From a virus, in the IMG/VR virus record IMGVR_UViG_3300035148_000415, positions 1 to 64,000 of that record: a DNA stretch of 64,000 bases; one strand, given 5' to 3'. Under the pieces are notes generated by a model. That model was given only the letters and a program-made list of their open reading frames with translations, did no database searches and was not told the origin of the DNA. Of this stretch, positions 5,585 to 63,028 are shown piece after piece. Position numbers and translations under genes: made by a program. Position 1 is the first letter of the stretch, and the number at the start of each line of letters is the position of its first letter.

Positions 5585-5856
5585 GCAGCACCGTCTGGAA
5601 GTACCCGCTGCAAGTCGCCGACGAGCAGACCATCTACGTCCCCTCCGATCCGCGCGTCCTGCACCTCGAGATGCAGCACCAGCAGCCGTGCATGTGGCTC
5701 CTGGTCGATCCGGAGAAGGAGCGGATGAAGATGAAGATCAGGATCATCGGCACCGGATGGGCCCCGGTCGACACGACGCTGTGGGTCTACCTCGGCACCT
5801 ACATGGAGCAGGGCGGGCGACTCGTCTGGCACTACTTCTGGGACAGGAGCCTCTGA
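5581..5856 (+). CDS. conserved-looking phage protein of unknown function
   Basis: GTG 5581 has 9-nt spacing from GGAGGA (GTG 5572 has none); VWKYPL.. N-terminus, GTGW and VWHYFW motifs. Confidence 0.6.
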   Translation: MSSTVWKYPLQVADEQTIYVPSDPRVLHLEMQHQQPCMWLLVDPEKERMKMKIRIIGTGWAPVDTTLWVYLGTYMEQGGRLVWHYFWDRSL

Positions 5857-6098
5857 TGGCCGAGGTCGGAAGGCGCGACATCGTCGCGGCAGCGGCGCTC
5901 GTCAGCATCGGGAGGCACATCATGCACCTCGACAACGAGTGGGACGACGGGTCGGACGCCCCATCCGTGCTCTCGGTGCGGCGCGGCCCGGGCGGCGCCG
6001 TCTACGACGCCGCCGTCGAGTTCGACGACGGGTCGAAGGCGACCGCCATCATCACCATCATCATCACCGGTGCCGAACCTGCGGAGGAGAAGCGATGA
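5856..6098 (+). CDS. hypothetical protein
   Basis: TGATG overlap; 80 aa. Confidence 0.5.
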   Translation: MAEVGRRDIVAAAALVSIGRHIMHLDNEWDDGSDAPSVLSVRRGPGGAVYDAAVEFDDGSKATAIITIIITGAEPAEEKR

Positions 6099-6235
6099 TC
6101 GACCCGGTCGCATACCGCCACATCACATCGCTGGGTCGGATGCTCGTGGATCAGGGGCACCTCACGGAGTACGGGCTTCGAATGCTCGACGCCGTGGTCA
6201 TCGAAGAATCCGGCAAGTGGGAGGAGAAGCAATGA
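6095..6235 (+). CDS. hypothetical protein
   Basis: ATGA overlaps both ends; 46 aa. Confidence 0.45.
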   Translation: MIDPVAYRHITSLGRMLVDQGHLTEYGLRMLDAVVIEESGKWEEKQ

Positions 6236-6777
6236 GGTACGTGTTCCTGGACACCGAGACGACCAGCCTCGACCGCTACAAGCGGCAGATCTGGGACCTG
6301 GCCTACATCATCCGCGACCCCGGCAACGGGCACGACGACACGGAGCGGCAATTCTTCTTCAGCGCCAGCCTGAAGGACGCCGACCCGATCTCCCTGAACA
6401 TCGGGCGCTACTACGAGCGGCACCCGAAGCCGTACTACATGTACGGAGGGAACTCCCATTACGAGGCCGATGCGCTGCGCGAGGTTGCGGAGGACCTGCG
6501 AGGGGCCACCATCGTCGGGGCGGTGCCGTCGTTCGACGAGGAGACGCTGGCGAAGATGCTGCACAAGCGGCTGGGCCTGCAGCCGACCTGGCGCTATCAC
6601 CTCGTCGACATCGAGACGCTGGTCGCAGGACATCTCGGAGTGCTTCCGCCGTGGAACTACGACGAGATCATCAGGGCGACCGACCTCCCGCCCATCACGG
6701 ACAGGGAGCGGCACACCGCGATCGGAGACGCCCGCACCGTGCGCGACCTCTGGGACTGGTGGGTGCAGTTGCGATGA
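6232..6777 (+). CDS. DEDDh 3'-5' exonuclease (DnaQ-like)
   Basis: ExoI FLDTETTS, ExoII VPSFDEETL, ExoIII HTAIGDARTV (H-x4-D). Confidence 0.85.
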   Translation: MRYVFLDTETTSLDRYKRQIWDLAYIIRDPGNGHDDTERQFFFSASLKDADPISLNIGRYYERHPKPYYMYGGNSHYEADALREVAEDLRGATIVGAVPSFDEETLAKMLHKRLGLQPTWRYHLVDIETLVAGHLGVLPPWNYDEIIRATDLPPITDRERHTAIGDARTVRDLWDWWVQLR

Positions 6778-7232: not shown

Positions 7233-7305
7233 CTCCGCGTAGCTCAGTGGATAGAGCAACGGCCTCCTAAGCCGTCGGTCGCAGGTTCGAGTCCTGCCGC
7301 GGAGG
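7233..7305 (+). tRNA. tRNA-Arg, anticodon CCT (reads AGG)
   Basis: Hand-folded cloverleaf: acceptor CTCCGCG/CGCGGAG, D stem GCTC/GAGC, anticodon stem ACGGC/GCCGT with loop CTCCTAA, variable CGGTC, T arm GCAGG-TTCGAGT-CCTGC, discriminator G; no encoded CCA. Confidence 0.9.
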
Positions 7306-7354
7306 CGAACCTCCAGTACCGCGCAGCGCCTAGACTCTGCGCAACGGACGAAAG

Positions 7355-9052
7355 GTGTCTGAAGTGACGATGCAGCCGGGCGTTCCGATCCACGACCTCA
7401 ACCAGTCGGCCGGCGACCAGACCTCGGACCTCGCTGAGGTCGAGGCGCTGAGCCGCATCGTCCCGATGAAGCCGCTCGGCATCAGCGGCCTGAACAGGAA
7501 CGTCGGGTATGTCACCGAGGAGTTCCTTCCGGCTCTGAAGGGCCAGAAGGCGGCGAAGATCTACAACGAGATGCTGGCGAACAGCCCGTTGATCGGTGCT
7601 TCGGTGTCGACGATCGAGATGCTGCTGAAGAACATCTCGTGGGAGGTGGTGGCTCCGAGCGAGAGCGACGGCGCGAAGCAGGGCGAAGAGGTGCTCCGAA
7701 TGTCCATGGACGAGATGGACACCGGGTGGTCGGACTTCATCGCGGAGGCGCTGTCGTTCATCTGGTACGGATGGGCGTTCTTCGAGACGACGTACGCCCG
7801 CAGCAGCGGAGCCGTCGTCTGGGCGGACATGTCGGTCCGTGCGCAGGAGACGCTTGTGCGCTGGGTGTTCGACGACCTCGGCAGGGCCGTCGGGATGGTC
7901 CAGTCGGCTGCGCCGAACTACGCGTTCAGGACCATCCCGTTGAGCCGGGGCGTCCATATCCGCAACAGGAGCCGCAAGCGCAACCCGGAGGGCATCAGTG
8001 CGCTGCGCAACGCCTACGAGCCCTGGTACTACAGCAAGCGGATGATGCAGATCGAGGCGATCGGCCTTGAGCGGGACCTGGCCGGCCTGCCGATCATGTG
8101 GCTGCCCGCCGACCTGCTGCGCGACTCGGACAAGAACCCGAACAAGAGGAAGCAGGTCGACCAGTTCACGAAGCTCGTCCGGTCCGTGCGCCGCGACGCC
8201 AACGAGGGCCTGGTGCTGCCGTTGGAGTACGACAGCGACACCAAGCAGAAGAGGTACGAGTTCCAGCTGCTGAACTCCGGCGGTGGCAGGCAGTTCGACA
8301 CCAACAGCATCATCAACCGGTACGAGCAGCGCATGCTGCAGGCGATGATGACCGACTTCATCATGCTCGGGGCGCTGTCGAAGACCGGTTCGTACGCGAT
8401 GCACCTGGACAAGACCGGCATGCTGCGAGCAGCGCTGAACGGACACGCCTCCGCGATCGCAGAGGCCCTGAACCGCCAGGCGGTGCCGAAGCTGATGGCG
8501 ATGAACTCGATCCAGAAGCAGGATTGGCCGAAGATCGTCCCGTCCGACGTCGATGCGCCGAACCTGGGCGAGCTGGCGCAGTTCATGGGCGCGATGGCGC
8601 AGATGGGCATGCAGTTCTTCCCGGATCCCGACATCGAGGCGTTCGTGCGGAAGAGCGCCAGGATGCCGGAGCTCAGCGACTCCGAGCGCGAGGTCAGGAC
8701 GTCGGAGAAGGCGAAGACGGACATCACCAGGTTCATCGGCGTTCAGAGCGCACTGCTGCAGGCGAAGGCGCAGATCAGGGAGGCTTCGGCCCAGGAGGAC
8801 CAGTCCATGTCGATCTCCTCGGACCCCGCCGCCGAGCGCGACGCGCTCGCGCTCATGCAGCAGGGACCGCAGGGAGGCCCTGAGCAGCAGGCGCAGCAGG
8901 CCGCCCAGGAGCAGGCCCAGCAGCAGGCCCAGCAGGACCAGCAGGCCCAGCAGCAGGAGAAGCACGACATGGCGATGGCGCAGCAGCGGCAGAAGATGGA
9001 TCTCGCCGCCGAGAAGCAGAAGGCGCAACTGCAACAAGCGCGCAAGAAGTAG
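7355..9052 (+). CDS. portal protein (candidate)
   Basis: 565-aa first large gene of the head module, upstream of protease/scaffold/capsid genes; Gln/Ala-rich C-terminal tail; start ambiguous (GTG 7355, GTG 7364, ATG 7370). Confidence 0.65.
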   Translation: MSEVTMQPGVPIHDLNQSAGDQTSDLAEVEALSRIVPMKPLGISGLNRNVGYVTEEFLPALKGQKAAKIYNEMLANSPLIGASVSTIEMLLKNISWEVVAPSESDGAKQGEEVLRMSMDEMDTGWSDFIAEALSFIWYGWAFFETTYARSSGAVVWADMSVRAQETLVRWVFDDLGRAVGMVQSAAPNYAFRTIPLSRGVHIRNRSRKRNPEGISALRNAYEPWYYSKRMMQIEAIGLERDLAGLPIMWLPADLLRDSDKNPNKRKQVDQFTKLVRSVRRDANEGLVLPLEYDSDTKQKRYEFQLLNSGGGRQFDTNSIINRYEQRMLQAMMTDFIMLGALSKTGSYAMHLDKTGMLRAALNGHASAIAEALNRQAVPKLMAMNSIQKQDWPKIVPSDVDAPNLGELAQFMGAMAQMGMQFFPDPDIEAFVRKSARMPELSDSEREVRTSEKAKTDITRFIGVQSALLQAKAQIREASAQEDQSMSISSDPAAERDALALMQQGPQGGPEQQAQQAAQEQAQQQAQQDQQAQQQEKHDMAMAQQRQKMDLAAEKQKAQLQQARKK

Positions 9053-9061
9053 TCTGCTTCC

Positions 9062-9520
9062 ATGGGCAACCAGATCGTCGACCAGAAGGACTGGTCTGAG
9101 AAGCAGCGCAGGATCACCGATGCGACGACAGGCATCACCGCGCTCGGCGCGGGTGCTCTCGGCGCCGCGATCGCCGGGAAGACGAAGACGGCGGGGAAGG
9201 TGCTTCCGAAGAAGGTCCACCGGGCGCTGAGGTCCGGCAAGGCCGACGATGTGAGGAACAGCATCGCGCTCGCATCGATGCTCGGAGGCGTCTATTCGGG
9301 CATCAACTGGTCGAAGAAGCTGCGCAGCGATGCGCAGTCGCCTCCTGAAGGCACCCCTGCCGCCCAGCGGGAGGCTATGCGCAGGGCCGTGAACTACGCG
9401 GCAGCGATGGATATCGAGAAGGGCATCGTGCCGTCCTCGATCATGCCGACGATCAGGGGCCTGCGGATGCGCAGGTCCTACTACCGCAGGACGCCGCTTC
9501 CGCGGCCCAGGAGGGCATAG
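9062..9520 (+). CDS. basic protein with Gly/Ala-zipper segment
   Basis: 152 aa; ITALGAGALGAAIAGKTKTAGK followed by basic residues. Confidence 0.6.
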   Translation: MGNQIVDQKDWSEKQRRITDATTGITALGAGALGAAIAGKTKTAGKVLPKKVHRALRSGKADDVRNSIALASMLGGVYSGINWSKKLRSDAQSPPEGTPAAQREAMRRAVNYAAAMDIEKGIVPSSIMPTIRGLRMRRSYYRRTPLPRPRRA

Positions 9521-9522
9521 CG

Positions 9523-12500
9523 ATGGATCGTGATGTGGTGCTGGACGTTCTCTTCGCGAAGGCGATGGCGGACGAGTGGGTCGCGGGCGTCGATGCGCTC
9601 GCAGAGCTGTGCAAGTCGCTGGACCGTTGCGAACGCGCGATCGCGGCGAAGGGGCTGCTGCGCGCCTATGCGAACGCCATGTCCCGCGGGGATGTGGAGA
9701 AGATGCACGAGCTGTCCGACGCGATGGACGGGGTCGTGATCGGCAAGGCGTTCGAGCTGTTCAACTTCCAGACCGGGGCCCGGGAGGTCGAGGTCGTCAG
9801 GGACAGCAAGGGGAGGTTCAGCAGGTACTTGGCGAACTCCCAGTCGAAGGTGGCCCCGAAGTCGGTCGATCCTGACGAGAAGCGCAAGAGGGGCGACTAT
9901 GTGGCGTCGATCTCCGGCGCCCGGATGGAGCGCCTGAACACCGACCTCGCAGGAGGAACCCCGAACTCCATGTCGGCGAACGGCATCGATCAGCAGATGG
10001 TGCAGAGGGGCAGGGAGGACGCCGGGAGGATCAGGGCGATCAACGAGTTCCAGGACGAGCTGCTCGGGCTGTTCGGGAACAACAAGGACGTCATGGTCGT
10101 GATCCAGGGCGAGCAGATGGCTGGCAACCCCGGGGACGTCGTGACGCTCGGACTGCAGGAGCCGGTGAACGATCAGGCGCTCGCAGCGGCCGGCGGCGAC
10201 TCCAGGCTGATGATGGGGCTCAGGCCGAATGCGGCTCCGGATACCCGCGAGAAGTTCGAGATGTTCAACCAGTTGATCGACTCCGGTATCAGGCCCGATG
10301 TGGCCGGGGAACTGGTCAACAGCGGCAACGGCGCCGGAGCGGCGGCAAGGGTCGGCAATGCGCTGATGCAGTACACGGGCGCCGCGCCGAGCAAGACGAG
10401 CCAGAAGGCGATCCGCCACTTCCAGACTGCGGATGCGCTCGGCTCCTACTTCATGCGTTCCGGGCAGCCGCAGCTGATGGCTGCAGGAACCGCGCTGAAG
10501 AACGTGGCGGCGATGGGCGGAAAGCTGAACGAGAGCCACTACCAGCTCGCCGAGCGGATGAACTACCGGTTCCGCGGGATGAAGGACAACCTCCCGCAGC
10601 TGTTCACCGAGTCGATGGCCTCCGGTCCGCACAGGGTGGCGACGGCGCTGTTCAACGACCCGAACCTCGGACCGCAGCGGTGGGCCGAGATCAGGGACAA
10701 GGTGTTCTCGCAGCCGGCCAGGAGGGAGCGGGCGCTCTCTACCGACAAGGGCGGCAACGTGCAGTTCTCCGACACCACTGCCGCGATCGCGTCGTACATG
10801 GATCGCAACCCCAGGTTCACCAACAGGATGTCTCCGCGAGACTTCGTCGACAGGTTCGTCGGCGATATCGCCGTGACGTCGCTGATCCCGGAGATCCCGG
10901 CGGACAAGCGCGCGGTCGAACTGGGCCAGCAGGCGGGTTTCGGCGTACCGTCGTCGGGCATCATCATCCGGTCGGACGGGCAGGCGAAGGAGATGTACCG
11001 GGGCGTGGGCGAAGACCACTACCTGCCGTTCTCCGCGAAGGCGCTCCCCGAGCTGCGCGATGCGCAGTACGTCAGGACGAGGGTTCTCGGAGGCCACACC
11101 GGCGAGGACATCACGACGCTCGTAGCGTCCGGTGCGAGGCGCGCCACGGTCGTTTCAGGATCCGGCGTGTTCTCCATCGAGTTGAAGCCGAACACGTCCC
11201 TGGTGGGCCGTATGGCCCAGCCCGAGGTTGCTGCGATGGGGGAGCGGTACGAACGCATCCTCGACAAGTTGTCGTCGAGCGGGATCTATGCGGTCGATCT
11301 GCCGAACGAGACGATGACGGAGCTGCGCCGGAAGGCCGCCGAGTTCACCGGGAAGATGCCGGAGGACGAGGAGTACAAGACGCACCTCACGAAACTGGTG
11401 ACGAAGGCGAGGGCGCAGGCCGCGCAGATCACGCAGGAGGACATCGACAGCATCACCGAGCGCGTCGACGCGCAGATGGAGCTCGACACGTCGGCGCAGT
11501 CTCCGCAGCAGAAGGCGCGCCTGAGGGACGAGCTGCTGAAGGACGCGATGCAGGACAAGGAGAACGAGAAGGTCAGGACGCTCTCCTTGAACGGCGAGGG
11601 GTACGCGCTGGCGCTGGAGACGCTGAGGATGCAGTACCCGTCGATCATCGCGAACGTGGAGTACGAGTCCATCAACGACTTCGTCAAGAACAGGGAGCTC
11701 GGAGGAGTCCTCGACCGTGCAGCGGTGACGATCAGGAACCGCAGGAACGCCAAGGACAGCGGCCTGGTGAAGCCGGGGCAGACGTCCGCGTTCGCCGGCA
11801 ACAAGAAGTGGAGCGACGAGCGGCTGGAGGCGAGCAGGGCCGAGGTGCTCTCCTCGGTCGTCCGCAGGGCGGCTGCAGCTGCAGAACCGGCCGCCGCTGC
11901 GAACGCCGCTGAGCCCGGTGGTGAAGCCGCAGGCGCCGCTGCTCCCGGCGGTGCTGCTGCGAACGCGGCGGCGGCGGCGAGGGCGGGGACGCTCCCTGCA
12001 GCCGCAGGCGGTGCCGATGCTGCTGCGGCCCCTTCGCGCGGGACCGGGGCGACCGTCGCGACGCTGCGCACGACGATGGACAAGTCCACCGAGAACGCGC
12101 TGAACGCGGGCGCATCCAAGCTGTCCGGCCTGCTGGTGGCCGACGGGGTGTCGGTGGATCAGATATCGGGCAAGAAGTTCCTCGACATGCTGATCGACGA
12201 CGATCCGAACAGCGATGCGGAGGACGCGAAGCAGCCCCGCAGGGCGCAGAAGGCGTGGGCGCAGGCCATACCGACGGCGAAGCGCGGGTACTTCACCGGA
12301 TCGATCAGCGGCTCCGCGCTCAGCGGCCTCGGCGCCGGGGTCACCGACCCTGTCGGCATGGAGCATTCGATGCGGTCTCCGGAGGGGATCGTCGGAGTCA
12401 TGTACGCGACCTTCGCCGGGAACAAGCACCTGCTCGCAGGGCTGCAGCACGACCAGTCGGTCAGCCCTGCTGCATCCGCGCTCAGCGAGGACCAGAAGGC

Positions 12501-13182
12501 GGAGCTCGGCGCTGCTGTCGACGAACTGGCGTCGTTGCAGCTGATGCACTCGGGCGCCACCACTTCCCAGGCCTCCGAGAAGCTCGACGAGGTGACCCCG
12601 TCGTTCTTCGTGAGGCCCGAGTACCTGCGTTTCGTCGAGCAGAACATCCAGTCCGGCGGCTTGCCGGAGCAGTTGGCGAACCTCGAGAAGGTGTTGAACG
12701 ACGACAGCGCGCCGGAGACCGCTCAGAGGAAGAGGGCGGCGGCAGGAGCTCTGGACCTGCTCAAGGGCGACGACAAGTTCCGCAGCGAGGTCATGCACGG
12801 CACCGATATCAGCGCCGACCCGTTCGAGGGTCTGAGCGTGCTCGGGCTGCTGGCCCTCCAGTCGAAGATCCAGCAGGAGATCAACGCAGCGACGCCGTCC
12901 GGAACCGGCAGGGGGAAGGCGCTGATCGAAGCGCTGGGCATCGATTTCTCGTCCATCGGATCCACGGACCAGCCTGCGCTGCTCAAGGCGAAGCAGGATG
13001 CGTACAAGCAGTACCAGGACGCCATCGGCGCGGAGTACGTGTACCGGCTGATGGGGGGTGGTGATGTCGGCCCAAAAGTACTAGGGCAGCACAGGGGGAG
13101 GCTGTCCAAGAACAGCGACCTGGTGGAGGAGTTCCTCCGGCTGACTCGGGAAAGCCCTCCGTCGCTGGTTCCGCGAGCGTAG
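9523..13182 (+). CDS. giant head-module protein (1219 aa), function unknown
   Basis: Uninterrupted high-GC3 ORF directly after portal region; Ala-rich linker about nt 11870-12060; no catalytic motif recognised. Confidence 0.75.
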   Translation: MDRDVVLDVLFAKAMADEWVAGVDALAELCKSLDRCERAIAAKGLLRAYANAMSRGDVEKMHELSDAMDGVVIGKAFELFNFQTGAREVEVVRDSKGRFSRYLANSQSKVAPKSVDPDEKRKRGDYVASISGARMERLNTDLAGGTPNSMSANGIDQQMVQRGREDAGRIRAINEFQDELLGLFGNNKDVMVVIQGEQMAGNPGDVVTLGLQEPVNDQALAAAGGDSRLMMGLRPNAAPDTREKFEMFNQLIDSGIRPDVAGELVNSGNGAGAAARVGNALMQYTGAAPSKTSQKAIRHFQTADALGSYFMRSGQPQLMAAGTALKNVAAMGGKLNESHYQLAERMNYRFRGMKDNLPQLFTESMASGPHRVATALFNDPNLGPQRWAEIRDKVFSQPARRERALSTDKGGNVQFSDTTAAIASYMDRNPRFTNRMSPRDFVDRFVGDIAVTSLIPEIPADKRAVELGQQAGFGVPSSGIIIRSDGQAKEMYRGVGEDHYLPFSAKALPELRDAQYVRTRVLGGHTGEDITTLVASGARRATVVSGSGVFSIELKPNTSLVGRMAQPEVAAMGERYERILDKLSSSGIYAVDLPNETMTELRRKAAEFTGKMPEDEEYKTHLTKLVTKARAQAAQITQEDIDSITERVDAQMELDTSAQSPQQKARLRDELLKDAMQDKENEKVRTLSLNGEGYALALETLRMQYPSIIANVEYESINDFVKNRELGGVLDRAAVTIRNRRNAKDSGLVKPGQTSAFAGNKKWSDERLEASRAEVLSSVVRRAAAAAEPAAAANAAEPGGEAAGAAAPGGAAANAAAAARAGTLPAAAGGADAAAAPSRGTGATVATLRTTMDKSTENALNAGASKLSGLLVADGVSVDQISGKKFLDMLIDDDPNSDAEDAKQPRRAQKAWAQAIPTAKRGYFTGSISGSALSGLGAGVTDPVGMEHSMRSPEGIVGVMYATFAGNKHLLAGLQHDQSVSPAASALSEDQKAELGAAVDELASLQLMHSGATTSQASEKLDEVTPSFFVRPEYLRFVEQNIQSGGLPEQLANLEKVLNDDSAPETAQRKRAAAGALDLLKGDDKFRSEVMHGTDISADPFEGLSVLGLLALQSKIQQEINAATPSGTGRGKALIEALGIDFSSIGSTDQPALLKAKQDAYKQYQDAIGAEYVYRLMGGGDVGPKVLGQHRGRLSKNSDLVEEFLRLTRESPPSLVPRA

Positions 13183-13244
13183 GCGCTGCTTCCGATCCCG
13201 GCATCGACCCCAAGACGGATGCGGTCCCGACGCCGCACGGCGAG

Positions 13245-14231
13245 GTGAGCGATGTCGACTACACGAAGAGGCCGAGGTACGTCGAGATCCAGGAGGAGAT
13301 CGCCGCGCTGCCCGGCATGCGCAGCGTGAAGGGCAAGGTGAACAGGCTCGTCGAGCAGGCGATGATGAACAAGGCGCGCGCTGCGGCCGGCATGCCGGTT
13401 GAGCCGACGTCGAACAACATGATCCTCACCGGCAACCCCGGCACCGGCAAGACGACGGTGACCAGGAAGATGGGCGAGTTGATGTTCGAGCTCGGCCTGT
13501 CGAAGTCTCCCCAGGTGGTGCAGCTGACGCGCGCGGACCTGGTGGGTGAGTTCGTGAACCAGGCCGCGGAGAACGCCAACAAGGTGCTGACGAAGAACCG
13601 GGGCAAGACGATCTTCATCGACGAGGCGTACACCCTGTACAACGGACCGCAGGACCACGAGGGCAGGCAGGTCGTGGACGAACTGATGCGGCTGGCCGAG
13701 GAGTACAGGGAAGACACTCCGATCATCCTCGCCGGGTACGAGGACGAGATGGACCGGATGGTCGCCGTCAACCCCGGCATGAAGTCGAGGTTCCCCGGGA
13801 GGATGGACCTTCCCGATTACACCCCGCAGGAGAAGGCCCAGGTGATGCACTACATCGTCGGGCAGGCGAACAGGACGTACGAGTCCCCTGCGGTGAAGAA
13901 GAGGGTCGCTGCGTACGCCGCGTCGGTGCCGAGCGTCGGCGAGCACGGCAACGCCAGGGCGGTGAGGAACTTCTACGACGCGATGCGCGAAGCGCAGGCG
14001 GCGCGGCTGATGGGCGGCAAGAACCTGACGCCGCAGGTCCTGTCGACGTTCACCGCCGAGGACGCCGATGCCGCCGCGTTCATCATGGGGCTCGAGCCGA
14101 TCAGGACCGTGCGCGGTACGAAGGCTCCGAATCCTGCGGCCAGAGCTCGCAGGGAGGGGTACCGCCGCAGGGTAGGGTCGGCTGGACCAGGGAGGAAAGA
14201 TGCAGTGGTGGCGGGAGCCGGACTGGCGTGA
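13245..14231 (+). CDS. AAA+ ATPase of the CbbX/SpoVK/EccA family
   Basis: Walker A LTGNPGTGKTTV, Walker B TIFIDEAYTL, ILAGYEDEMDRM..NPGMKSRF family signature; GTG start; 3' end overlaps next gene by 32 nt. Confidence 0.85.
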   Translation: MSDVDYTKRPRYVEIQEEIAALPGMRSVKGKVNRLVEQAMMNKARAAAGMPVEPTSNNMILTGNPGTGKTTVTRKMGELMFELGLSKSPQVVQLTRADLVGEFVNQAAENANKVLTKNRGKTIFIDEAYTLYNGPQDHEGRQVVDELMRLAEEYREDTPIILAGYEDEMDRMVAVNPGMKSRFPGRMDLPDYTPQEKAQVMHYIVGQANRTYESPAVKKRVAAYAASVPSVGEHGNARAVRNFYDAMREAQAARLMGGKNLTPQVLSTFTAEDADAAAFIMGLEPIRTVRGTKAPNPAARARREGYRRRVGSAGPGRKDAVVAGAGLA

Positions 14232-17200
14232 CACGGCGCAGCTGGTGGACGACCCCGCCATGGCGCGCATGGTGCTGGTCGCAGCAGCGTCGCAGGCCGA
14301 CCTGACCGGCCCCGACTACGGCTGCGAGGAGCTGGCGAAGGCCTGCGAGGACCAGGATGTCGTCTTCGCCTTCAACCGTGCCGGGGACGATGCTTCGTAC
14401 GCCTCGTGCGCAGCCGACGCCGTCGACACCTACGCGACGATGGTTTCGGTGCTCGGATCGCACGGGCTCCCTGCTTCTATCGCTGCGGACAGGGCTGCGC
14501 TGGTGTTCGGCCTCCCGTCGGTGGATCAGCAGTACGTCAAGTTCGCCAAGGAGGTTGCATGCCCGGACGACGTGCTGCGCGCAGCGGCGGACGAGGCGCT
14601 GGTCCGGGCGTTCGCAGGGTTCGCCAGGGAGGCTGTTGCGAAGACCGATCGCCCGTGGGACGAATCGGAAGTCGTCAGGGACGAACTGGGGAGGTTCGCG
14701 GAGGAGTCCGACGACAAGGCTGCGAGGTACCGGATCATCAACGGGCGCAAGTACGCGATCTCCGAGAAGGCGGCGCTGAACGAGAAGAGGGATTCAGCCG
14801 GGGACGCCGGGGACGCGGCGCAGGAGGCCGATGATGCGGCGATGCTGGCGTTCGCGCAGGAGGAGCGGCTGCGCGAGGAGCAGAGGCAGAAGCGCAAGGA
14901 CCGCAGGAAGCGGAAGTTGAAGCAGTACAGCCAGCACCAGGAGCTGGAGCGGCAGGCCGCTCAGGACGCCGCCAGGGCGAGGGAGGTGCGGCGCCAGAAG
15001 GAGGAGGCTGCGAAGGCGAAGGTGGAGGCCGAGAGGCGGGCCAGCGAAGCGGCCGAGCGGTCGGCGCAGGTCAGGATCGCCAACCGCGGGAAGACGCTCG
15101 CATCCCTGGACTCCGAGCAGAAGAAGGTCCTGAGGGCGTTCAGGCAGCTGCGTGCGCTTCCGCCCGGTGAGAGGAGGCTGCGCAACATCAGGATGCTGGA
15201 GACGATGAAGGGCAGCGCCGCTTCTGCAGGCGGCGGATCCGGCGGCGGGGACGGCGAGAGCGACCTCAAGAAGGTCATGGGCGGCGTCATCGACGAGATC
15301 GGGAACATCAGCCTCCTGGGGACGGTCGATGGCGACAAGCTGACGTTCGACCAGATCGAGCAGGGCGGAACGATAGTCCTCAGCGGAGCCGGTTCGAACG
15401 GAGGCGACGTCCGCGTTGCGATCAAGGACAGGAACGACGCGGTTCTCATGTCGAGGCTGCTGTTCATGACGAAAAGGGGCACGGCGGTTACGGACTACGG
15501 GTCGCTGATGCCCGTTCTCGGGAACGAGGTCGTCTCCAACGCTATCGACAGCGTCTACAGCATGCTCTCGGTCTACGACGCGAAGGCGCCCGAATACGGC
15601 GGCGGCGGCGCCGGGGAGCGGGAGGAGCTCGCCAAGAAGGCCCTGGAGAACATCGGGGATTCGCTGGTCAAACAGTTCCTCGAGTCCGGCAAGGGCGACG
15701 GTTCGATCATCCTGACGTCAGGGGGACGGGCCTTCCTCGTCGACATCACCAAGCTCTTCAAAGGCTTGACTCCGAAGGTCCAGGTGGTCGACGGGCAGTC
15801 GGTGCTGACGGTCACGGCCGCGCCGCCGCCGGCCGAGCATGGCGACGACATGTTCAACAGCTACGCGGATGGCGGATGGTTCAGGTTCGACGCCGATGGG
15901 AAGAACGAAGGGGCGGAGCCGGTAGGTGCTTTCAGCGCCTTCGAGTACGCGACCGGCGGCCCGGGGATCACGTTCTCCGTCGACCCCGACGGCCTGGTGA
16001 ACACATCTACCGAGGGCGGCGCCGTCAAGAAGAGCGCAGTGCTATGGGACGAGTCGGAAGTCGTCAGGGACGAATTGGGGCGGTTCGCCGAGGAGGACGG
16101 CGAGAAGCCTGCCGTGCGCAACGTCGGAGGCCGCAAGGTCCTGGTGGCTGTCAGGGCGGGAGACTCGGCGGCCGAGGCGGGCGCTGCAGCGGCGGGCGCT
16201 GCTGGGGACGAGCTCGCAAGGCGCAGGGCTGTGAGGGCGAAAAGGCAGCGGCAGCACTCGGAACTCGTGCGAGCGGAGCAGCAGGACCGCTTGCGCGCAG
16301 CAGCCATGGCGGAGCGGCGCACCGGGCAGCAGGACGGCGGACCGCACGTCCTGAGAAGGGCTCCGCAGATGCTGGACGCATCCGCCGACCGGACCGGGCT
16401 CAGCACCAGGGCGAGCGTGTTCCTGGAAGTGCTCGAGGAGCGCGATCGGATGCGCGCCGACCGGGTGCTGGGCGCGCTGCCGGACGCGGAGCTCTCCATG
16501 ATGGCGGCGATGAGGCTGCGGGAGAGGTACAAGGCGATGGCGCTGGAGGACCAGGAGGAGAATTCGGGCTTCCTCGCGAGTTTCGGCGAAAGGGCGCGGC
16601 GTGCCAGGGAGGCGGCGCTGGAAGAGGCGGTGGCGCAGGCCAAGAAGGGCGAGGGCCTCGCGTTCGCCGAGAAGGTGGTCGCCGAGGAGAAGAAGCTGCT
16701 GGTCAAGCGGCCGCAGTCTGTTGCGCTCGCCGAGTCGCTGCCGAAAGTGTCGTCCAGGTCTGCACCGCTGGCCGCCATGGGGCGGAAGATCGGCGAGGAG
16801 CAGAAGGAGGGGCGCAGGACGGCTGCTGTCGAAGAGGCTCCGGGCGTCATCGGGCTGGAGGGGTCCGCGCACAACAACGTCACCCGTCTGATAGGCGACA
16901 ACCTCGACTACATCAAGCAGAGGCTGGAGGAGGGCGAGCCTGTCTCTGTGACCTTCAACAGGGACTCCCTCGGCGGCGCTCCGCTCCGTGGAGGTTCGCT
17001 GGTGCCGAAGCTGTGGGCGCGCCACTTCGACAGCGGAGGCGCAGAGCCGGCGGCGTCCGCCGCACCGGCCTCTGCCGCGGCTGCGTCCGGCGGCATCTCG
17101 TACGCGCCTCCGCAGGAGGGCGCGGCGGCAAGTGCGACCGGCGGCGGGGACACCTCCGATGCGCGCCTGGAGGATGCGAGGGCACGGGCGGTGTACTTCA

Positions 17201-17433
17201 CCAGGGATGCGATGACGAACCTGGTCGATGCGCTGAAGCTGCTGGACGAGGACGATGTATCGGTGACGATGGATGTGCTCAGCGGCGAGGGGACGTGGGA
17301 CAGCCCGATCGACCTCGACAGGCCCGAGGAGACGGAACAGGTCGGAGGGCGCAGGACCGTGCTGAAGTCCGACGCCCGGCGCAGGCTGCGACTGGTACGG
17401 ATAGAATCGCGCAAGGAGGCTGCCGATGACTAG
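14200..17433 (+). CDS. giant head-module protein (1077 aa) with duplicated WDESEVVRDELGRFAEE motif and charged coiled-coil tracts
   Basis: ATG with GGGAGGAAAG SD; motif at aa 153 and 616; KR/E-rich stretches. Confidence 0.75.
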   Translation: MQWWREPDWRDTAQLVDDPAMARMVLVAAASQADLTGPDYGCEELAKACEDQDVVFAFNRAGDDASYASCAADAVDTYATMVSVLGSHGLPASIAADRAALVFGLPSVDQQYVKFAKEVACPDDVLRAAADEALVRAFAGFAREAVAKTDRPWDESEVVRDELGRFAEESDDKAARYRIINGRKYAISEKAALNEKRDSAGDAGDAAQEADDAAMLAFAQEERLREEQRQKRKDRRKRKLKQYSQHQELERQAAQDAARAREVRRQKEEAAKAKVEAERRASEAAERSAQVRIANRGKTLASLDSEQKKVLRAFRQLRALPPGERRLRNIRMLETMKGSAASAGGGSGGGDGESDLKKVMGGVIDEIGNISLLGTVDGDKLTFDQIEQGGTIVLSGAGSNGGDVRVAIKDRNDAVLMSRLLFMTKRGTAVTDYGSLMPVLGNEVVSNAIDSVYSMLSVYDAKAPEYGGGGAGEREELAKKALENIGDSLVKQFLESGKGDGSIILTSGGRAFLVDITKLFKGLTPKVQVVDGQSVLTVTAAPPPAEHGDDMFNSYADGGWFRFDADGKNEGAEPVGAFSAFEYATGGPGITFSVDPDGLVNTSTEGGAVKKSAVLWDESEVVRDELGRFAEEDGEKPAVRNVGGRKVLVAVRAGDSAAEAGAAAAGAAGDELARRRAVRAKRQRQHSELVRAEQQDRLRAAAMAERRTGQQDGGPHVLRRAPQMLDASADRTGLSTRASVFLEVLEERDRMRADRVLGALPDAELSMMAAMRLRERYKAMALEDQEENSGFLASFGERARRAREAALEEAVAQAKKGEGLAFAEKVVAEEKKLLVKRPQSVALAESLPKVSSRSAPLAAMGRKIGEEQKEGRRTAAVEEAPGVIGLEGSAHNNVTRLIGDNLDYIKQRLEEGEPVSVTFNRDSLGGAPLRGGSLVPKLWARHFDSGGAEPAASAAPASAAAASGGISYAPPQEGAAASATGGGDTSDARLEDARARAVYFTRDAMTNLVDALKLLDEDDVSVTMDVLSGEGTWDSPIDLDRPEETEQVGGRRTVLKSDARRRLRLVRIESRKEAADD
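14656..14706 (+). repeat. 51-nt intragenic repeat, copy 1
   Basis: tgggacgaatcggaagtcgtcagggacgaactggggaggttcgcggaggag; 47/51 identical to copy 2. Confidence 0.9.
16045..16095 (+). repeat. 51-nt intragenic repeat, copy 2
   Basis: tgggacgagtcggaagtcgtcagggacgaattggggcggttcgccgaggag, same reading frame as copy 1. Confidence 0.9.
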
Positions 17434-18067
17434 CAAGATCGCGGAGCTGATGTCCGCGGATCCCGTGGTGAAGAGCCTCATGCTCGAGGTGTTCGGCAAG
17501 TCTGACGCCGGGACGATCGACACGGTGATGCGCTCTTCGAACAGGGTCGTGGTGTCCAAGACGGCCTCCGCGCCTCCTGCGAGGCTCCGCCTGTCGGTTG
17601 CCGCCCCGGAACCGGCGGCCGCAGCGGTCTCCAAGGGGGACGACGCAGGGGACCTCGAGGACATCACCGTCACAACGGAGTTCTCCAAGACCGATGACGA
17701 GCGGCGCACCGTGTTCGGGTGGGCGTCGATCACCGAGGTGAACGGCGAGCCTGTCGTGGACAGGCAGGGCGACATCATGGACATCGAGGAGTTGTCGAAG
17801 TCGGCGTACGAGTACGTGGTGTCGTCCAGGAAGGGCGGGCACCAGCACAAGCGCTCAGAGACCGGGGAGCCGCTGCAGGTGTCCGACATGATCGAGTCGG
17901 TGGTGTTCACCCCGGAGAAGATCGAGAAGATGGGGCTGCCGCCGAGCACGCCGATCGGATGGTGGGTCGGCTACAAGGTGCGCGACGACGAGATCTGGAA
18001 GGCCGTCAAGGACGGGGAGATCACCGGGTTCTCCGTGCACGGGAAGGGCAGAAGGGTCAAGGTGTAG
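17426..18067 (+). CDS. prohead protease, XkdF-like (Peptidase_S78_2-type)
   Basis: C-terminal two-thirds matches the B. subtilis XkdF pattern from memory: RTVFGWASI..VDRQGDIM..EEL..AYEYV..H....IESVVF..DDEIWKAVKDGEITGFSVHG. Confidence 0.75.
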   Translation: MTSKIAELMSADPVVKSLMLEVFGKSDAGTIDTVMRSSNRVVVSKTASAPPARLRLSVAAPEPAAAAVSKGDDAGDLEDITVTTEFSKTDDERRTVFGWASITEVNGEPVVDRQGDIMDIEELSKSAYEYVVSSRKGGHQHKRSETGEPLQVSDMIESVVFTPEKIEKMGLPPSTPIGWWVGYKVRDDEIWKAVKDGEITGFSVHGKGRRVKV

Positions 18068-18069
18068 CG

Positions 18070-18627
18070 ATGCCTGCCGACGAGACGCTCATGTGGAGGG
18101 CGAACCCGGTCTCTGCTGCGAACATGTTCGCTTCTGCGGCAAACTACAACCACGTGTACAGGACGCGCTGGCTGCGACGGAAGAGGCCCGGAGTGACACA
18201 GGCGAACGCTCTGCTGACCGTTTACACGCCGCTGCACTACGGGACGGGGTCGGTGCTCATCGGAAAGGCCGACTGCTTCGAGGAGAGCCTGACGACCGTG
18301 TCGAAGATCTCGGAGAACGAGCGCAGGATCTCTCTCGCCACGAGCGCCGGCGGAGCCATCGCCGCTCCTGGCCTGATGTACATGGCCGTTCGCAGTGCGA
18401 AGAACAACGAGGGCGGCGTGCCGCGCGCGATGGCGAGGCTCGCCGGGACGAACAAGCACACGAAGAACACCAAGGCCGGGAAGAAGCTGAAGCGGCTGGC
18501 CGACAAGCTCGACTCGCCGAAGTCGTTGCGGTGGAAGCGCGCCGCGCTCGCTGCCGGAGCGGGAGGCGTCGCTCTGCAGGGCCTGAACAGCCTCGGTGAC
18601 AGCATCACGGCGAGGGCGATGTCGTGA
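18070..18627 (+). CDS. basic protein with two Gly/Ala-zipper segments
   Basis: 185 aa; SLATSAGGAIAAPGLMYMAV and RAALAAGAGGVALQGLNSLG. Confidence 0.6.
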   Translation: MPADETLMWRANPVSAANMFASAANYNHVYRTRWLRRKRPGVTQANALLTVYTPLHYGTGSVLIGKADCFEESLTTVSKISENERRISLATSAGGAIAAPGLMYMAVRSAKNNEGGVPRAMARLAGTNKHTKNTKAGKKLKRLADKLDSPKSLRWKRAALAAGAGGVALQGLNSLGDSITARAMS

Positions 18628-18694: not shown

Positions 18695-19477
18695 ATGGTG
18701 ACGAAGTTGGAGGCGATGACCTTCGACGAGGTTTCGCTCGTGCGTAGACCTGCGAACCAGCACGCATCTATTGTGTTCAGCAAGGCGGATGAAGGAGACG
18801 ACATGCCGGGCATTCTGTTCACCGAGGACGGCGTCGAGGTGGATATCGACGACCTGGAGATCGGAACCGAGATCGAGCTGGACGACGGGCAGATCTACAC
18901 CGTGGTCGCGGCCGACGACGAAGGCGACGAGGGCTACGAGCAGCTCGAGTTCGAAGGCGCGGATGCCGACTACGGGAAGTCCGAGGACTACGCGGCCGTC
19001 ATCGCGAAGGCCTATGAAGCCGCAGTCACCGACGAGGAGCGGTCGGAGCTGCTCGGCCATGTCGCGAAGAGCGCCGCTCTGGCGAAGGCCCAGGCGGATG
19101 CCGCTGTGCAGGCGCTGGCCGCGCAGGAGGACGCCGAAACCTTGAACTGGTGCATCAGCAAGGCCGACGAGTACGGGTTCGCGGGGAACCGGACAGAGAT
19201 GTTCGGCGTGTGCATCGCGAAGATGATGACCGTCCTTGACGACGACGAGCTCGGCCTGATGGGCGACATCTTCAAGTCGTTCTCCGACCTGATCGACATG
19301 ACCAACATCGGTGTCGAGTCCTCGGGCTCGTCCGACGTCATGGACCTCGTCCACTCGGCGGCCGGCGACATCGTGAAGAGCTCCGAGGGCGCCCTGTCGC
19401 CGGAGCAGGCCATGGCAGCAGCCTTCGAGGCTAACCCCGAGCTGTACGCGCTCTACCTGGACGAGAAGGGAATCTGA
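18695..19477 (+). CDS. scaffolding protein (candidate)
   Basis: Very acidic 260-aa helical protein between protease and capsid genes; N-terminal EVSLVRRPANQHA motif resembles the N-terminal motif of XkdF/protease-scaffold families. Confidence 0.65.
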   Translation: MVTKLEAMTFDEVSLVRRPANQHASIVFSKADEGDDMPGILFTEDGVEVDIDDLEIGTEIELDDGQIYTVVAADDEGDEGYEQLEFEGADADYGKSEDYAAVIAKAYEAAVTDEERSELLGHVAKSAALAKAQADAAVQALAAQEDAETLNWCISKADEYGFAGNRTEMFGVCIAKMMTVLDDDELGLMGDIFKSFSDLIDMTNIGVESSGSSDVMDLVHSAAGDIVKSSEGALSPEQAMAAAFEANPELYALYLDEKGI

Positions 19478-19479
19478 CC

Positions 19480-19899
19480 GTGGCTTACTCGGAGCAGCTT
19501 GAAAGGCGGACGTACCTCGCGGGCCCGTCCGTGGTGAAGTGGGTCGGAGTCCCCGGCATGCCGGGCTCCATCGAGCCGAACGTCGGCACCCAGTACCTTC
19601 TCGTCAAGCTCGATACCGCGAACAAGGACGTCGTCGAGCTCGCCACCGGTGCAGCCGGGGAGGTCGTCGTCGGAGTGACCACCACGAAGTCGCAGCATCC
19701 GAAGATGCCTGTGGCCGTGGCGTTCTCCGGCCGCGTCCCCGTGCAGGCCGGCGCGGCGCTGGCGTACGGCGACTACGTCAAGCCCGGACCCGGCGGCCAG
19801 GCCGTCGTCGGTACCAAGGCTGACGGAATCGGGATGGTCGTCGAAGCAGCTTCGGCGAAGGGCGTTCTCGCCACGATCGAACTTTCGCTGGGAAGGTGA
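19480..19899 (+). CDS. head decoration protein (DUF2190-like)
   Basis: 139-aa Gly/Val/Ala-rich beta-type protein immediately upstream of a gpE-like capsid gene; GTG start. Confidence 0.65.
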   Translation: MAYSEQLERRTYLAGPSVVKWVGVPGMPGSIEPNVGTQYLLVKLDTANKDVVELATGAAGEVVVGVTTTKSQHPKMPVAVAFSGRVPVQAGAALAYGDYVKPGPGGQAVVGTKADGIGMVVEAASAKGVLATIELSLGR

Positions 19900-19906
19900 C
19901 TGAGAA

Positions 19907-20887
19907 ATGACACAGCCAGTTGGCGGCGACCTCCATGTCGATCAGGTTCTGACGAACTTCTCGGTCGCGTGGTCGCAGAGCACGAACGACTTCATCTCGA
20001 GCAAGGTGTTCCCGCGCCTGCCGGTGGACAAGCGGACCGACCGCTACAGGGTCTACAACAGGGCGCAGATGCGTTCCGTCGGAGGCGTGTTCAAGCGCGC
20101 TCCCGGCACCGAGTCCCGCGGGATCGGCTGGACGTCCACGCACGAGACCTACCACGTCGACCCGTACGCGGTGCATGTCGACCTCGACGACCAGACGTTG
20201 GCCGAGGCCGATGATCCGCTGAAGCTGCCGAGGCAGGCGACCTCGCTCATCACTCAGCGCCTGCTGCTGAGCAAGGAGCTCGACTGGCACGAGAAGTTCT
20301 TCAAGCCCGGCGTGTGGGACAACGAGCCGACTCCTGCCGAGATGTGGGACGACGCCGCGTCGGATCCGATCAGCGAGGTCGGGCACTGGGTCGACCAGTT
20401 CGCGCTGCAGAACGCGAAGGCCCCGAACGTCATGATCATCGGGGTCGACGTGTGGCGCGCGCTGCGCAACCACCCCGACCTCGTGGACAGGATCAAGTAC
20501 ACGCAGCGCGGCCTGGTCACGGCAGACCTCATCGGCGCGGCGTTCGAGATCCCGACCATCCTCGTGTCGCGCGCGTCCTGGGTTCCCGACTACGAGGAGC
20601 GCGGGTCCGCGAAGGAGGACAACGACAACGCCCCCGACTTCAGGTACATCACCAACCCCAAGGGCATCCTCCTGACGTATTCGACGGATACGCCGCAGGA
20701 CATGGAGCCTCTTGCGGGCCTGTCGATCACCTGGAAGGGCTACTTCGCCGGCAACTCCCAGGGGATCCGCATCAAGCGGTTCCGCCAGGAGGCCATCGAG
20801 TCCGATCGCATCGAGGGCATGATCACCTACGAGCACCGTCAGGTCGCTCCTAGCATGGGGCTTTACGTAGACCAACTGGTTGCCTGA
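19907..20887 (+). CDS. major capsid protein, lambda gpE-like family
   Basis: 326 aa; size, position and N-terminal VDQVLTNFSVAW..SKVFPRLPV.. pattern typical of Phage_cap_E proteins. Confidence 0.8.
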   Translation: MTQPVGGDLHVDQVLTNFSVAWSQSTNDFISSKVFPRLPVDKRTDRYRVYNRAQMRSVGGVFKRAPGTESRGIGWTSTHETYHVDPYAVHVDLDDQTLAEADDPLKLPRQATSLITQRLLLSKELDWHEKFFKPGVWDNEPTPAEMWDDAASDPISEVGHWVDQFALQNAKAPNVMIIGVDVWRALRNHPDLVDRIKYTQRGLVTADLIGAAFEIPTILVSRASWVPDYEERGSAKEDNDNAPDFRYITNPKGILLTYSTDTPQDMEPLAGLSITWKGYFAGNSQGIRIKRFRQEAIESDRIEGMITYEHRQVAPSMGLYVDQLVA

Positions 20888-21738
20888 TGTCTGTGGACGA
20901 CAGGAACTGGGCACGCCCAGTCGTCTACAAGGTGCGTAGGCGGTGCTCGATACACGGTGTCGCGCACCAGCCTGGCGACGTGCTGACCGATGATGTCGCT
21001 TCCACGCTGAACCTGAACAGGCTGGTGTCCAGCGGCGTGCTCACCGTCGTCCTCGATCCGTACTTCAGGCGCGGGTACGACGAGGGCGTCCAGCCGATGC
21101 CTGTCACCGTCCCTCCGGGGAAGCGGCCGAGGGCGCTGGCGACGCAGGCGACGGCGGGAACTCCGGGATCGTTCGGCAGCGGCAGGGTTCCTTCGAACCT
21201 AGGTGAGATGACCGGAGTCACCGCAGTCCCGGCCAACGCCTGGAGCCCCACCGAGCGCGTGGTGCTGGGCGACGGGTCGAAGGCGCGATGGACCGGGACC
21301 GCGTGGGCGGCCTGGATCACTCCGCTGGCCTCGATCGCCGTCACCCCTGCGACCGCGACGCTGGCGACCACCACGGGGACGCAGCAGCTGGCTGCTGCTC
21401 CGGTCCCCGCGGACGCTCCGCTGGGGACGGTGGCATGGACGTCGTCCGATCCGACCAAGGCGACGGTGGGAGGCTCCACCGGCCTCGTCACCGGCGTCGC
21501 AGCGGGTACGGTCACGATCACCGCGGCTTCGGGCAGCGCCCGTGGTACGGCCACGATCACTGTTCCTGCAGCGGCTCCTGCTCCTGCTCCTCCGCCGGAC
21601 CAGCTGAGCGACGGGCCGGGCTCCTCGGAGGATGTCGTCGTCGAGGTGTCGAAGGACCCCGAGACGGCGTCGAAGAAGCGCCGCAGCCGCTCCTCTGCGG
21701 ATAGTGTTGTCCCAGTGCAGGAAGGACCTGCCGAGTAG
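20887..21738 (+). CDS. Ig-like (Big_2) domain protein, probable capsid/virion surface protein
   Basis: Big_2-like IAVTPATATL..GTQQL..VAWTSSDPTKATV..GLVTGVAAGTVTITA..GTATITV at nt 21328-21564; Pro/Ala linker. Confidence 0.7.
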   Translation: MSVDDRNWARPVVYKVRRRCSIHGVAHQPGDVLTDDVASTLNLNRLVSSGVLTVVLDPYFRRGYDEGVQPMPVTVPPGKRPRALATQATAGTPGSFGSGRVPSNLGEMTGVTAVPANAWSPTERVVLGDGSKARWTGTAWAAWITPLASIAVTPATATLATTTGTQQLAAAPVPADAPLGTVAWTSSDPTKATVGGSTGLVTGVAAGTVTITAASGSARGTATITVPAAAPAPAPPPDQLSDGPGSSEDVVVEVSKDPETASKKRRSRSSADSVVPVQEGPAE

Positions 21739-59034: not shown

Positions 59035-59039
59035 CTGCG

Positions 59040-63021: not shown

Positions 63022-63028
63022 GGTCCGC

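Follow-up and report, generated by a model that had tools for sequence, protein, structure and literature searches.

Two giant proteins and a CbbX/EccA-type AAA+ ATPase between the portal and prohead protease genes of an uncultured phage clade

The portal-to-protease block and its recurrence

The DNA considered here (the window) comprises positions 1 to 64,000 of IMG/VR virus record IMGVR_UViG_3300035148_000415, a phage-like genome segment with a GC content of 66% and with nearly every gene on the + strand. Between its genes for a Mu-type portal protein and an XkdF-type prohead protease lie four open reading frames (ORFs), which encode a Gly/Ala-zipper protein of 152 amino acids (aa), a giant protein of 1219 aa (giant 1), an AAA+ ATPase of 328 aa and a second giant protein of 1077 aa (giant 2). 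A preliminary description, made from the sequence alone, had reported this gene content and a share of about 13 percent of the window; all of the ORFs are indeed present at its coordinates on the + strand (Table 1), the block (9062-17433) amounts to 8,372 nt or 13.1% of the window, and the GC content at third codon positions (0.87-0.93) is as in real genes of a 66% GC genome. It had also stated that it knew of no described system of this composition, with which our searches agree, since no published counterpart (i.e. with an AAA+ protein in the head module) was found in the literature or among the INPHARED phages.

The arrangement is not confined to the window. A collection of 5.8 billion proteins contains nine close homologues of giant 1, and the window and five homologue contigs have a common order, i.e. 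portal, a protein of ~155 aa, one of ~1160 aa, the AAA+ ATPase, a protein of 724-1249 aa, the XkdF protease, proteins of ~200, ~260 and ~140 aa, and the capsid protein. A profile of the conserved giant 1 core, used in an exhaustive search, returned 530 clusters (at 50% identity) at E<=1e-3 and 340 at E<=1e-30, nearly all of 900-1300 aa, and an alignment-based scan of IMG/VR gave 169 relatives, from which 80 loci were kept and their genes assigned with hidden Markov models (HMMs) from the six close loci. Where the contig is long enough, giant 1 is flanked in these IMG/VR loci by the Mu-type portal on one side and the XkdF protease on the other, and the same scaffold and capsid genes come next. 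The portal gene stands upstream of giant 1 in every related locus that includes it (kept at E 1e-120 to 1e-159 in almost all of those with the complete gene), the protease is present in all that reach that far, upstream of the scaffold and capsid genes, and the 59 related loci that span giant 1 to protease have a second large ORF (547-1229 aa) after giant 1 or the ATPase, followed by the protease. The recurrence of this order in six close and ~80 IMG/VR contigs puts the arrangement far beyond chance. The related loci range from 41 to 71% GC, which does not fit a module specific to actinophages, as had been assumed.

Searches of other collections found much less. Neither the window's giants nor two divergent giant 1 proteins had a match in the 50,697 GenBank phages of INPHARED (in DNA and protein searches), and single-protein scans of IMG/VR with each giant as the query gave no matches, so that only the alignment-based scan succeeded. 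A scan of the GTDB species genomes for close relatives gave zero matches, and a hand-written degenerate pattern found a single contig there, from a Microlunatus metagenome-assembled genome, on which giant 1 is followed by giant 2 without an ATPase. Actinomycetota such as Microlunatus are likely to be among the hosts of the high-GC branch. Of the cultured phages that have capsid, scaffold and protease genes in common with the clade, RDJL Phi 1 and RHEph19 fill the slot with an ordinary MuF 'head morphogenesis' protein of 324-533 aa. Two of the IMG/VR contigs carry two diverged whole head modules each, ~67 kb apart (L023 and L026 on IMGVR_UViG_3300027749_000047, 136 kb; L025 and L027 on IMGVR_UViG_3300028392_000043, 106 kb), and each of these contigs is probably an assembly in which two related phages were joined, as a chimera or by concatenation.

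The giants, the ATPase and the shared tag

Judged by its sequence, giant 1 is a new family that is found clade-wide and has a strongly conserved core. It has no match in Pfam, PHROGs or NCBIfam, and 40 diverse members contain no Pfam domain even at E<=10, save for one C-terminal AAA/AAA_lid_6. Mean column identity is 65% over aa 300-760, versus 50% over the full length. The preliminary description had put forward AlphaFold and Foldseek as a check on the giants, the outcome of which was mixed: the core folds confidently in an AlphaFold2 (AF2) model from 46 sequences (predicted local distance difference test, pLDDT, 92.5; predicted template modelling score, pTM, 0.89), with the element order a-b-b-a-b-a-b-b followed by a helical bundle, but Foldseek found nothing significant for it in the PDB (best E ~0.5-4, the lowest being 0.48). 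Residues 1-1200, modelled with 9 sequences, reached a pLDDT of 58 and were uninformative against the PDB, where a sequence search with the profiles of both giants also gave low-complexity noise or nothing. In BFVD the sole strong match of the core is a 1143-aa protein of the same family from an uncultured phage (E 7e-24), accompanied by weak local matches to four 'minor capsid protein' models.

The weak Foldseek matches of the core are to RadC/JAB, tRNA deaminase and DYW deaminase (E 0.8-3.6), and the element order of the predicted model fits the deaminase-like/JAB-like topology a1-b1-b2-a2-b3-a3-b4-b5. The core has zero conserved Cys and one conserved His, so that the metal site of that topology, with its ligands at the starts of helices 2 and 3, would be missing. 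Its invariant polar residues (S477, S478, D485, K489, E490, D498, H499, Y500, R518, R520, T526, E528 and D529) suggest a binding or catalytic site. Giant 1 was also considered as a MuF protein, which was rejected: PF04233 is not found at E<=10 in the 40 members, and hhalign against the MuF proteins of RDJL Phi 1 and RHEph19 gave a probability below 1%.

The ATPase is of the CbbX/SpoVK/EccA type, as had been read from its motifs. In addition to its Pfam domains (Table 1), it matches the solved structures of CbbX (3syk, E 2.7e-43, with a residue-level alignment) and EccA1 (9lur, E 3.5e-35), and it scores 194 bits against the NCBIfam equivalog SpoVK (cut-off 423), 181 against EccA (467) and 176 against CbbX (459). 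Because it stays below all three cut-offs, it is an orthologue of none of them and represents a separate phage branch; it lacks the N-terminal tetratricopeptide repeats (TPR) of EccA, aligning to positions 269-551 of the EccA model only. The nearest relatives are protein remodellers, and a known terminase or replication accessory, which the preliminary description had named as the contrary outcome, was not what emerged. Walker A (GNPGTGKT), Walker B (IDEAY), NPGxxSRF (the arginine-finger region) and GNARxxRN (sensor-2) are conserved in 34 unique phage homologues, as is the pore-loop aromatic residue. Mueller-Cajar et al. are said to have found in 2011 that a pore-loop aromatic residue is important in CbbX. 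With its catalytic motifs conserved throughout the 34 homologues, the ATPase looks active. In a neighbour-joining tree of the giant 1 core the ATPase-bearing loci form essentially one clade (hereafter the AAA clade), with L047 as the exception. The gene is tied to its neighbours in two ways: its stop overlaps the giant 2 start in 6/7 loci, and P0117 and the IMG/VR locus L059 have giant 1 and the ATPase joined in one protein.

As precedents, other phage ATPases were considered and rejected. The SpoVK-like ATPase of Brevibacillus phage Emery lies in the replication module and that of 'Mycobacterium phage Adler' adjoins FtsK/ESX-like genes, neither being in a head module, and the AAA ATPase of Hardycor1 is paired with a vWA-MIDAS protein (a pairing typical of the MoxR type) outside the structural module.

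Giant 2 of the window, too, has no match in Pfam, PHROGs or NCBIfam. The preliminary description had called both giants unknown, which stands for giant 1 but not for giant 2. An iterative HMM joined 58 of the 59 second large ORFs into one family, of which the six close sequences were aligned, and a Pfam scan found PF04233 (Phage_Mu_F) in 21 of 50 family members; in L049, L057 and L060 the match scores 34-40 bits (cut-off 29.6) and covers approximately residues 187-284. The MuF-positive members have, in this order, a shared N-terminal segment, the zinc-ribbon core (W.TA.DER.C..C.P.H...HPNCRC), 'SKA', [FW]xExxHPRGxxGRF and a basic stretch. An HMM of the first 300 residues of the AAA-clade proteins matches 20 of 22 MuF-positive proteins (E 3e-13 to 8e-6) in two collinear segments, one on either side of the MuF core. 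In the other direction, an HMM of MuF-positive proteins matches the AAA clade at E 3.5e-9 to 2.5e-5. An HMM of the MuF core found no ORF anywhere in the AAA-clade loci, which means that the core was deleted there and not relocated, and the window's giant 2 has four Cys only, all within the first 121 residues and none in a zinc-ribbon pattern. Searched against databases, the core returns PF04233 proteins only, some of them named 'SPP1 gp7 family head morphogenesis protein'. The location agrees as well: the giant 2 gene lies in the head module downstream of the portal, while muf genes adjoin portal genes and gp7 binds the portal (PMC5576092). By these family profiles, giant 2 descends from MuF/SPP1 gp7, and its zinc-ribbon core was lost in the clade of the window. 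The giants therefore do not simply take the place of the usual MuF-like protein, as had been thought, giant 2 itself being MuF-derived.

The MuF core and the ATPase do not occur together. Among 55 unique loci, 28 have the ATPase only, 22 the MuF core only, 5 neither and none both, counts that are not phylogenetically independent, so that the exclusion is a pattern to explain and not a statistic.

The two giants have a linear tag in common, K[SA]x[FW]xExxHPRDxxGRF (WDESEVVRDELGRF in the window). Giant 1 contains a single RDxxGRF (aa 93) and giant 2 contains two (aa 160 and 623), with the context K[ST]D..WDESEVVRDELGRFAEE, and none lies outside the giants when the window and the five close loci are translated in six frames. 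Likewise, the matches of a tag HMM to all ORFs of 87 loci are confined to the two giant families, and separate ATPase proteins do not carry it. In giant 1 the tag is invariant in 9/9 homologues and present in 108 of 152 family members by a strict pattern; its low pLDDT in the AF2 model indicates that it is probably a linear peptide. Distant relatives have the form [ST]K[SA]x[FW]xExxHPRDxxG[RKQ]F, followed by K/R-rich stretches, and K[SAT] is found 9-18 residues upstream in 70% of the copies, versus 14% in the background.

The tag is also found outside the clade. When IMG/VR was scanned with a DNA pattern for EHPRDxxGRF, 64 stretches were found, of which ~50 lie outside the clade. In these, the tag follows immediately on a MuF domain in L096 and L138 and comes after a MuF-2H phosphoesterase fusion in L145. 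Among portal proteins, it lies on the C-terminal side of the portal domain in L115, while in L125 (380-3619) and L095 (4719-7241), where a PBECR3 nuclease is fused to a portal, two N-terminal copies flank the nuclease. Other proteins, of 160-1650 aa and otherwise unrelated, have it at residues 9-47. Architectures in which effectors are linked to portal or MuF domains have been proposed to be virion-packaged, injected polyvalent proteins (PMC5512222), and the presence of the tag beside MuF domains and beside portal domains with a fused nuclease suggests a location within the capsid and near the portal. A published description of the tag was not found in the literature, and a motif-only protein search gave 58 candidates, zero of them significant. 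In addition, the tag occurs inside a 2900-aa ORF (L114 1071-9770) and 'MARFSNLWDEAEHPRDRLGRF' opens proteins of ~1600 aa (L105 133-5049), both outside the clade.

Neighbouring genes

Like giant 1, the 152-aa Gly-zipper protein gave zero family matches in Pfam, PHROGs and NCBIfam. It is kept in the six close loci and missing wherever giant 1 abuts the portal, and in many AAA-clade loci its counterparts, with the same Gly-zipper start, measure 388-1047 aa, so that the interval from portal to protease contains three giant genes in some relatives.

Downstream, the start of the protease gene overlaps the stop of giant 2. The gene for a basic protein with Gly-zipper segments ('p200') sits between the protease and the scaffold-like gene, where an antisense ORF (18237-18608) overlaps the same stretch. 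The scaffold-like protein has the conserved sites YGKS[EA]D and IVKS, and 'KS[DEA]' is conserved both there and in the N-terminal extension of the protease; these are possible protease sites, proposed from their conservation, and they resemble the site between K and S at which HK97 gp5 is cleaved. At a position equivalent to that of the 139-aa gene, just 5' of the capsid gene, Arthrobacter phage Ottawa has a 'head fiber protein' (the equivalence is by position only). The capsid protein is 33-36% identical to those of ValentiniPuff, Ottawa, RHEph19 and RDJL Phi 1. Directly 3' of its gene follows a 283-aa protein with a Big_2 immunoglobulin-like domain (20887-21738), which may be a decoration protein and which L003 has in the same arrangement. 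The tape-measure protein (1811 aa, 26830-32265) has a C-terminal M23 peptidase domain.

Among the ORFs scanned across the window, none was recognised as a large terminase subunit, from which it follows that the packaging genes are either away from the portal or too divergent to be recognised. The region upstream of the portal encodes a peptidoglycan-binding protein (37-717), an RNA ligase with an OB fold (2956-4242), a DUF7352 protein (5572-5856) and an exonuclease-like protein (6070-6777). Just 5' of the portal gene two close relatives have hairpin-domain genes of the Acb2/Tad1 type (anti-CBASS/Thoeris sponges; L003 186-344, L005 276-893), and none was recognised at the equivalent place in the window. 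At the far end, an ORF of 1233 aa (58029-61730) lies in the window's most GC-rich part (71%) and has a sub-threshold GNAT match only, the next one being an ORF of 521 aa on the minus strand (61747-63312).

Table 1. Features of the block and its surroundings, with positions in the window unless another locus is named
Feature	Position	Strand	Evidence or remark
tRNA-Arg (anticodon CCT)	7233..7306	+	ARAGORN; directly 5' of the portal gene; context, outside the module
Portal protein, Mu type	7355..9052	+	Pfam PF06074 (Portal_Mu) E 1.7e-26; phrog_113 E 9.5e-63; C-terminal tail Q/A/E-rich
152-aa protein	9062..9520	+	N-terminal Gly/Ala-zipper hydrophobic helix; basic C-terminus (RRSYYRRTPLPRPRRA)
Long counterparts of the 152-aa protein	L008 6314-8650; L012 6473-8659; L020 4698-7499; L032 5651-8794; L048 6036-8750		
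Giant 1, 1219 aa	9523..13182	+	Member of a large uncharacterised family
Giant 1 tag RDSKGRF (aa 93-99)	9799..9819	+	Invariant Lys75 upstream
Giant 1 conserved core (aa 410-760)	10750..11802	+	Predicted alpha/beta subdomain and helical bundle
Giant 1 Ala/Gly/Pro-rich low-complexity linker (aa 783-838)	11869..12036	+	Composition scan; variable in the alignment
AAA+ ATPase, 328 aa	13245..14231	+	PF00004 E 6.8e-12; AAA_lid_6 PF17866 E 7.8e-12; single AAA module, basic C-terminal tail
Giant 2, 1077 aa	14200..17433	+	Assigned as a derived MuF (SPP1 gp7 family) protein without the zinc-ribbon core
Giant 2 first tag copy AKTDRPWDESEVVRDELGRFAEE (RD at aa 160)	14677..14697	+	Followed by a K/R/E-rich stretch
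Giant 2 second tag copy VKKSAVLWDESEVVRDELGRFAEE (RD at aa 623)	16066..16086	+	Followed by an R-rich stretch
Prohead protease, XkdF type	17426..18067	+	PF14550 E 2.6e-20; 73.1 bits vs cut-off 24; 80-aa N-terminal extension
185-aa basic protein with Gly-zipper segments ('p200')	18070..18627	+	HMM of four homologues, E 1e-52
260-aa acidic, helical, scaffold-like protein	18695..19477	+	D+E 22.7%; kept across the clade
139-aa head protein (scaffold or decoration type)	19480..19899	+	phrog_673 E 3.4e-10
Major capsid protein	19907..20887	+	phrog_1005 E 2.1e-62

Interpretation, alternatives and known systems

The idea of a cargo with its chaperone, which the preliminary description had offered as one hypothesis for the block, is still the best-supported reading, packaging and ejection being what we infer. 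In this overall best explanation, to which we give about an even chance, the giants are head-internal, probably ejected cargo with a dedicated AAA+ chaperone. The block would be the 'MuF slot' of the head-morphogenesis module of a widespread, uncultured, siphophage-like clade, enlarged into a set of portal-proximal, capsid-internal proteins. The tag may dock the giants to the portal or the prohead interior, or may mark them for the XkdF protease, so that they would be built into the prohead and possibly cut into pieces, and the basic stretches would keep them beside the DNA, with which they would be expelled at infection. The AAA+ ATPase would be a later addition, restricted to one sub-clade that was already without the MuF zinc-ribbon core, where, as a hexameric pore-loop remodeller, it might hold, partly unfold or deliver giants 1 and 2 during head assembly.

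Several observations weigh against this explanation. The searches of GenBank phages found no cultured relative with the module. The window's giant 2 and five other AAA-clade members have no PF04233 match at E<=1, and a direct hhalign comparison of the small alignments of AAA-clade and MuF-positive proteins is weak (E 0.016 over 40 columns), so that the link between giant 2 and MuF rests on the family-level HMMs. An effector domain was recognised in neither giant with Pfam, PHROGs and NCBIfam, nor in their relatives with Pfam (40 of giant 1 and 50 of giant 2), and the strong conservation of the giant 1 core might stem from a role other than ejection, be it enzymatic or in assembly. Short MuF proteins stop just after HPNCRC and lack the tag, which means that the tag accompanies the extensions and not the MuF fold; a role in docking or in cleavage is a proposal made from its sequence context. 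The exclusion between the ATPase and the MuF core reflects few evolutionary events, for which a Fisher p-value overstates the evidence. Finally, that the ATPase is dedicated to the giant pair, as had been proposed, is favoured by the two fusions and the overlapping genes, but 27 of the 55 unique loci have the giants without it, and hence their basic function does not need the ATPase.

Of the alternatives, taken here by falling confidence, the one in which the giants only serve assembly, i.e. as an internal core, a portal-incorporation complex or an auxiliary scaffold that is removed by the XkdF protease and, in one clade, extracted or recycled by the AAA+ ATPase, is rather unlikely in our view. 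It fits the position of the giants among portal, protease and scaffold genes and their presence in every clade member, the lack of a recognised effector domain, the 'KS' sites common to the scaffold-like protein and the protease, and the fact that CbbX-type AAA+ proteins are remodellers. Against this, cultured phages with homologous capsid, scaffold and protease genes and with similar genome sizes manage with a normal MuF protein alone, and SPP1 gp7, the MuF prototype, remains in the virion (PMC5576092). Moreover, where the tag is found elsewhere, it goes with portal or MuF domains to which a nuclease or phosphoesterase effector is fused, an arrangement that is sensible only if the effectors are delivered. 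Delivery could also extend to the ATPase itself, which would then be packaged with, or fused to, giant 1 and use host ATP after injection, where it might pull in the remaining polypeptides or DNA, or dismantle a host defence or envelope complex. The fusions imply that it travels with giant 1 in some lineages, its catalytic motifs are intact, and with the virion interior being without ATP a packaged ATPase could act only after ejection. However, a folded module of ~36 kDa would have to traverse the tail channel, in most loci the ATPase is a separate, untagged protein, and it has no host-targeting domain such as the TPR of EccA, which makes its delivery improbable.

It is even harder to see the ATPase and the giants as a mobile cassette for defence or anti-defence that came to lie in the head module by accident and plays no part in morphogenesis. 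That the ATPase is clade-specific, that SpoVK-like AAA+ genes are found in non-structural regions of Emery and Adler, and that some relatives have Acb2/Tad1-type genes beside the portal gene would all agree with such a cassette, but both giants occur in constant order in every related locus over the whole range of GC contents, giant 2 is homologous to a head protein, and the neighbouring genes overlap and are probably translationally coupled, which leaves it very improbable. Least credible of all, and close to negligible, is a role of the ATPase in DNA packaging, as an accessory motor to the terminase or portal: its gene is near the portal gene and a large terminase subunit was not recognised in the window, yet the closest relatives of the enzyme are not DNA translocases, half of the clade packages its DNA without it, and where it is fused, it is fused to giant 1 and not to a portal or terminase.

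Within the reading of the giants as cargo with a chaperone, a further step can be taken tentatively, one that we regard as possible but would not count on. HPRDxxGRF may be a portable tag of general use, one that directs proteins to the portal or to the inside of the capsid, might also mark them for processing, and serves effector loading in many unrelated tailed phages. In this clade, the loading of the two tagged giants would have come to depend on a dedicated CbbX/EccA-like AAA+ unfoldase that replaces the lost zinc-ribbon anchor of MuF. If so, this would be the first ATP-driven chaperone to load a phage capsid with protein cargo. The choice and loading of the proteins that accompany phage DNA (anti-defence enzymes, toxins, pilot proteins) are well understood only for T4 and few others. 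A tag that MuF-linked, portal-linked and free-standing proteins have in common might serve generally as an address label for the inside of the capsid, and is potentially useful to predict or engineer packaged cargo. The giant 1 family of ~1,100-aa proteins (in 530 clusters), with its unmatched but confidently folded core, is conserved through a whole viral clade and unannotated. In the ATPase, an AAA+ protein of the Rubisco-activase/ESX-chaperone type appears to have been recruited to head morphogenesis, where it excludes the MuF core and is sometimes fused to its presumed client; if it loads or unfolds cargo, an energy-dependent step would be added to a process that is thought to be passive co-assembly.

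Compared with known systems, the block is closest to the MuF/SPP1 gp7 proteins (PF04233), including the MuF polymorphic toxins. Giant 2 shares a family with proteins that pass PF04233, its gene occupies the portal-to-protease slot as muf genes do (PMC5576092), it has a long extension after the anchor region like the toxins, and HPRDxxGRF follows directly on the MuF domain in MuF-positive relatives and in unrelated MuF proteins. Unlike them, the window's giant 2 is without the zinc-ribbon core, carries two modules of tag plus basic stretch without a recognised toxin domain, and is encoded by the fourth gene after the portal instead of the first. The polyvalent proteins and other packaged effectors described by Iyer et al. 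2017 (PMC5512222), for which the P1 Dar proteins, T4 Alt and internal proteins, and MuF- or portal-fused PBECR and 2H proteins were compared, are likewise very large proteins encoded beside portal and MuF genes, inferred to be packaged and injected, and the tag of the giants recurs in portal-PBECR3 and MuF-2H fusions elsewhere. The giants differ in that they contain none of the catalogued effector or LPD domains, of which a polyvalent protein has two or more (by Pfam, their relatives have only MuF and one AAA fusion), and the polyvalent-protein paper does not speak of a dedicated AAA+ partner, neither 'AAA+' nor 'SpoVK' being used in it (PMC5512222).

With CbbX (the red-type Rubisco activase), EccA (of ESX secretion) and SpoVK the phage ATPase shares fold, motifs and the pore-loop aromatic residue, but it is encoded in a head module, is sometimes fused to giant 1 and lacks the TPR of EccA. 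The capsid-targeting sequences of T4 internal proteins and the cargo-loading peptides of encapsulins are short, portable peptides, that of T4 being also a protease cleavage signal. The tag resembles these by analogy only, without sequence similarity, being likewise portable and found at the termini or between the modules of unrelated proteins, which in those systems come to lie within a shell of the HK97 fold. Taken together, what is new here is a giant family and a tag that had not been described, and their AAA+ partner, while MuF- and portal-anchored head-internal proteins are of a known kind.

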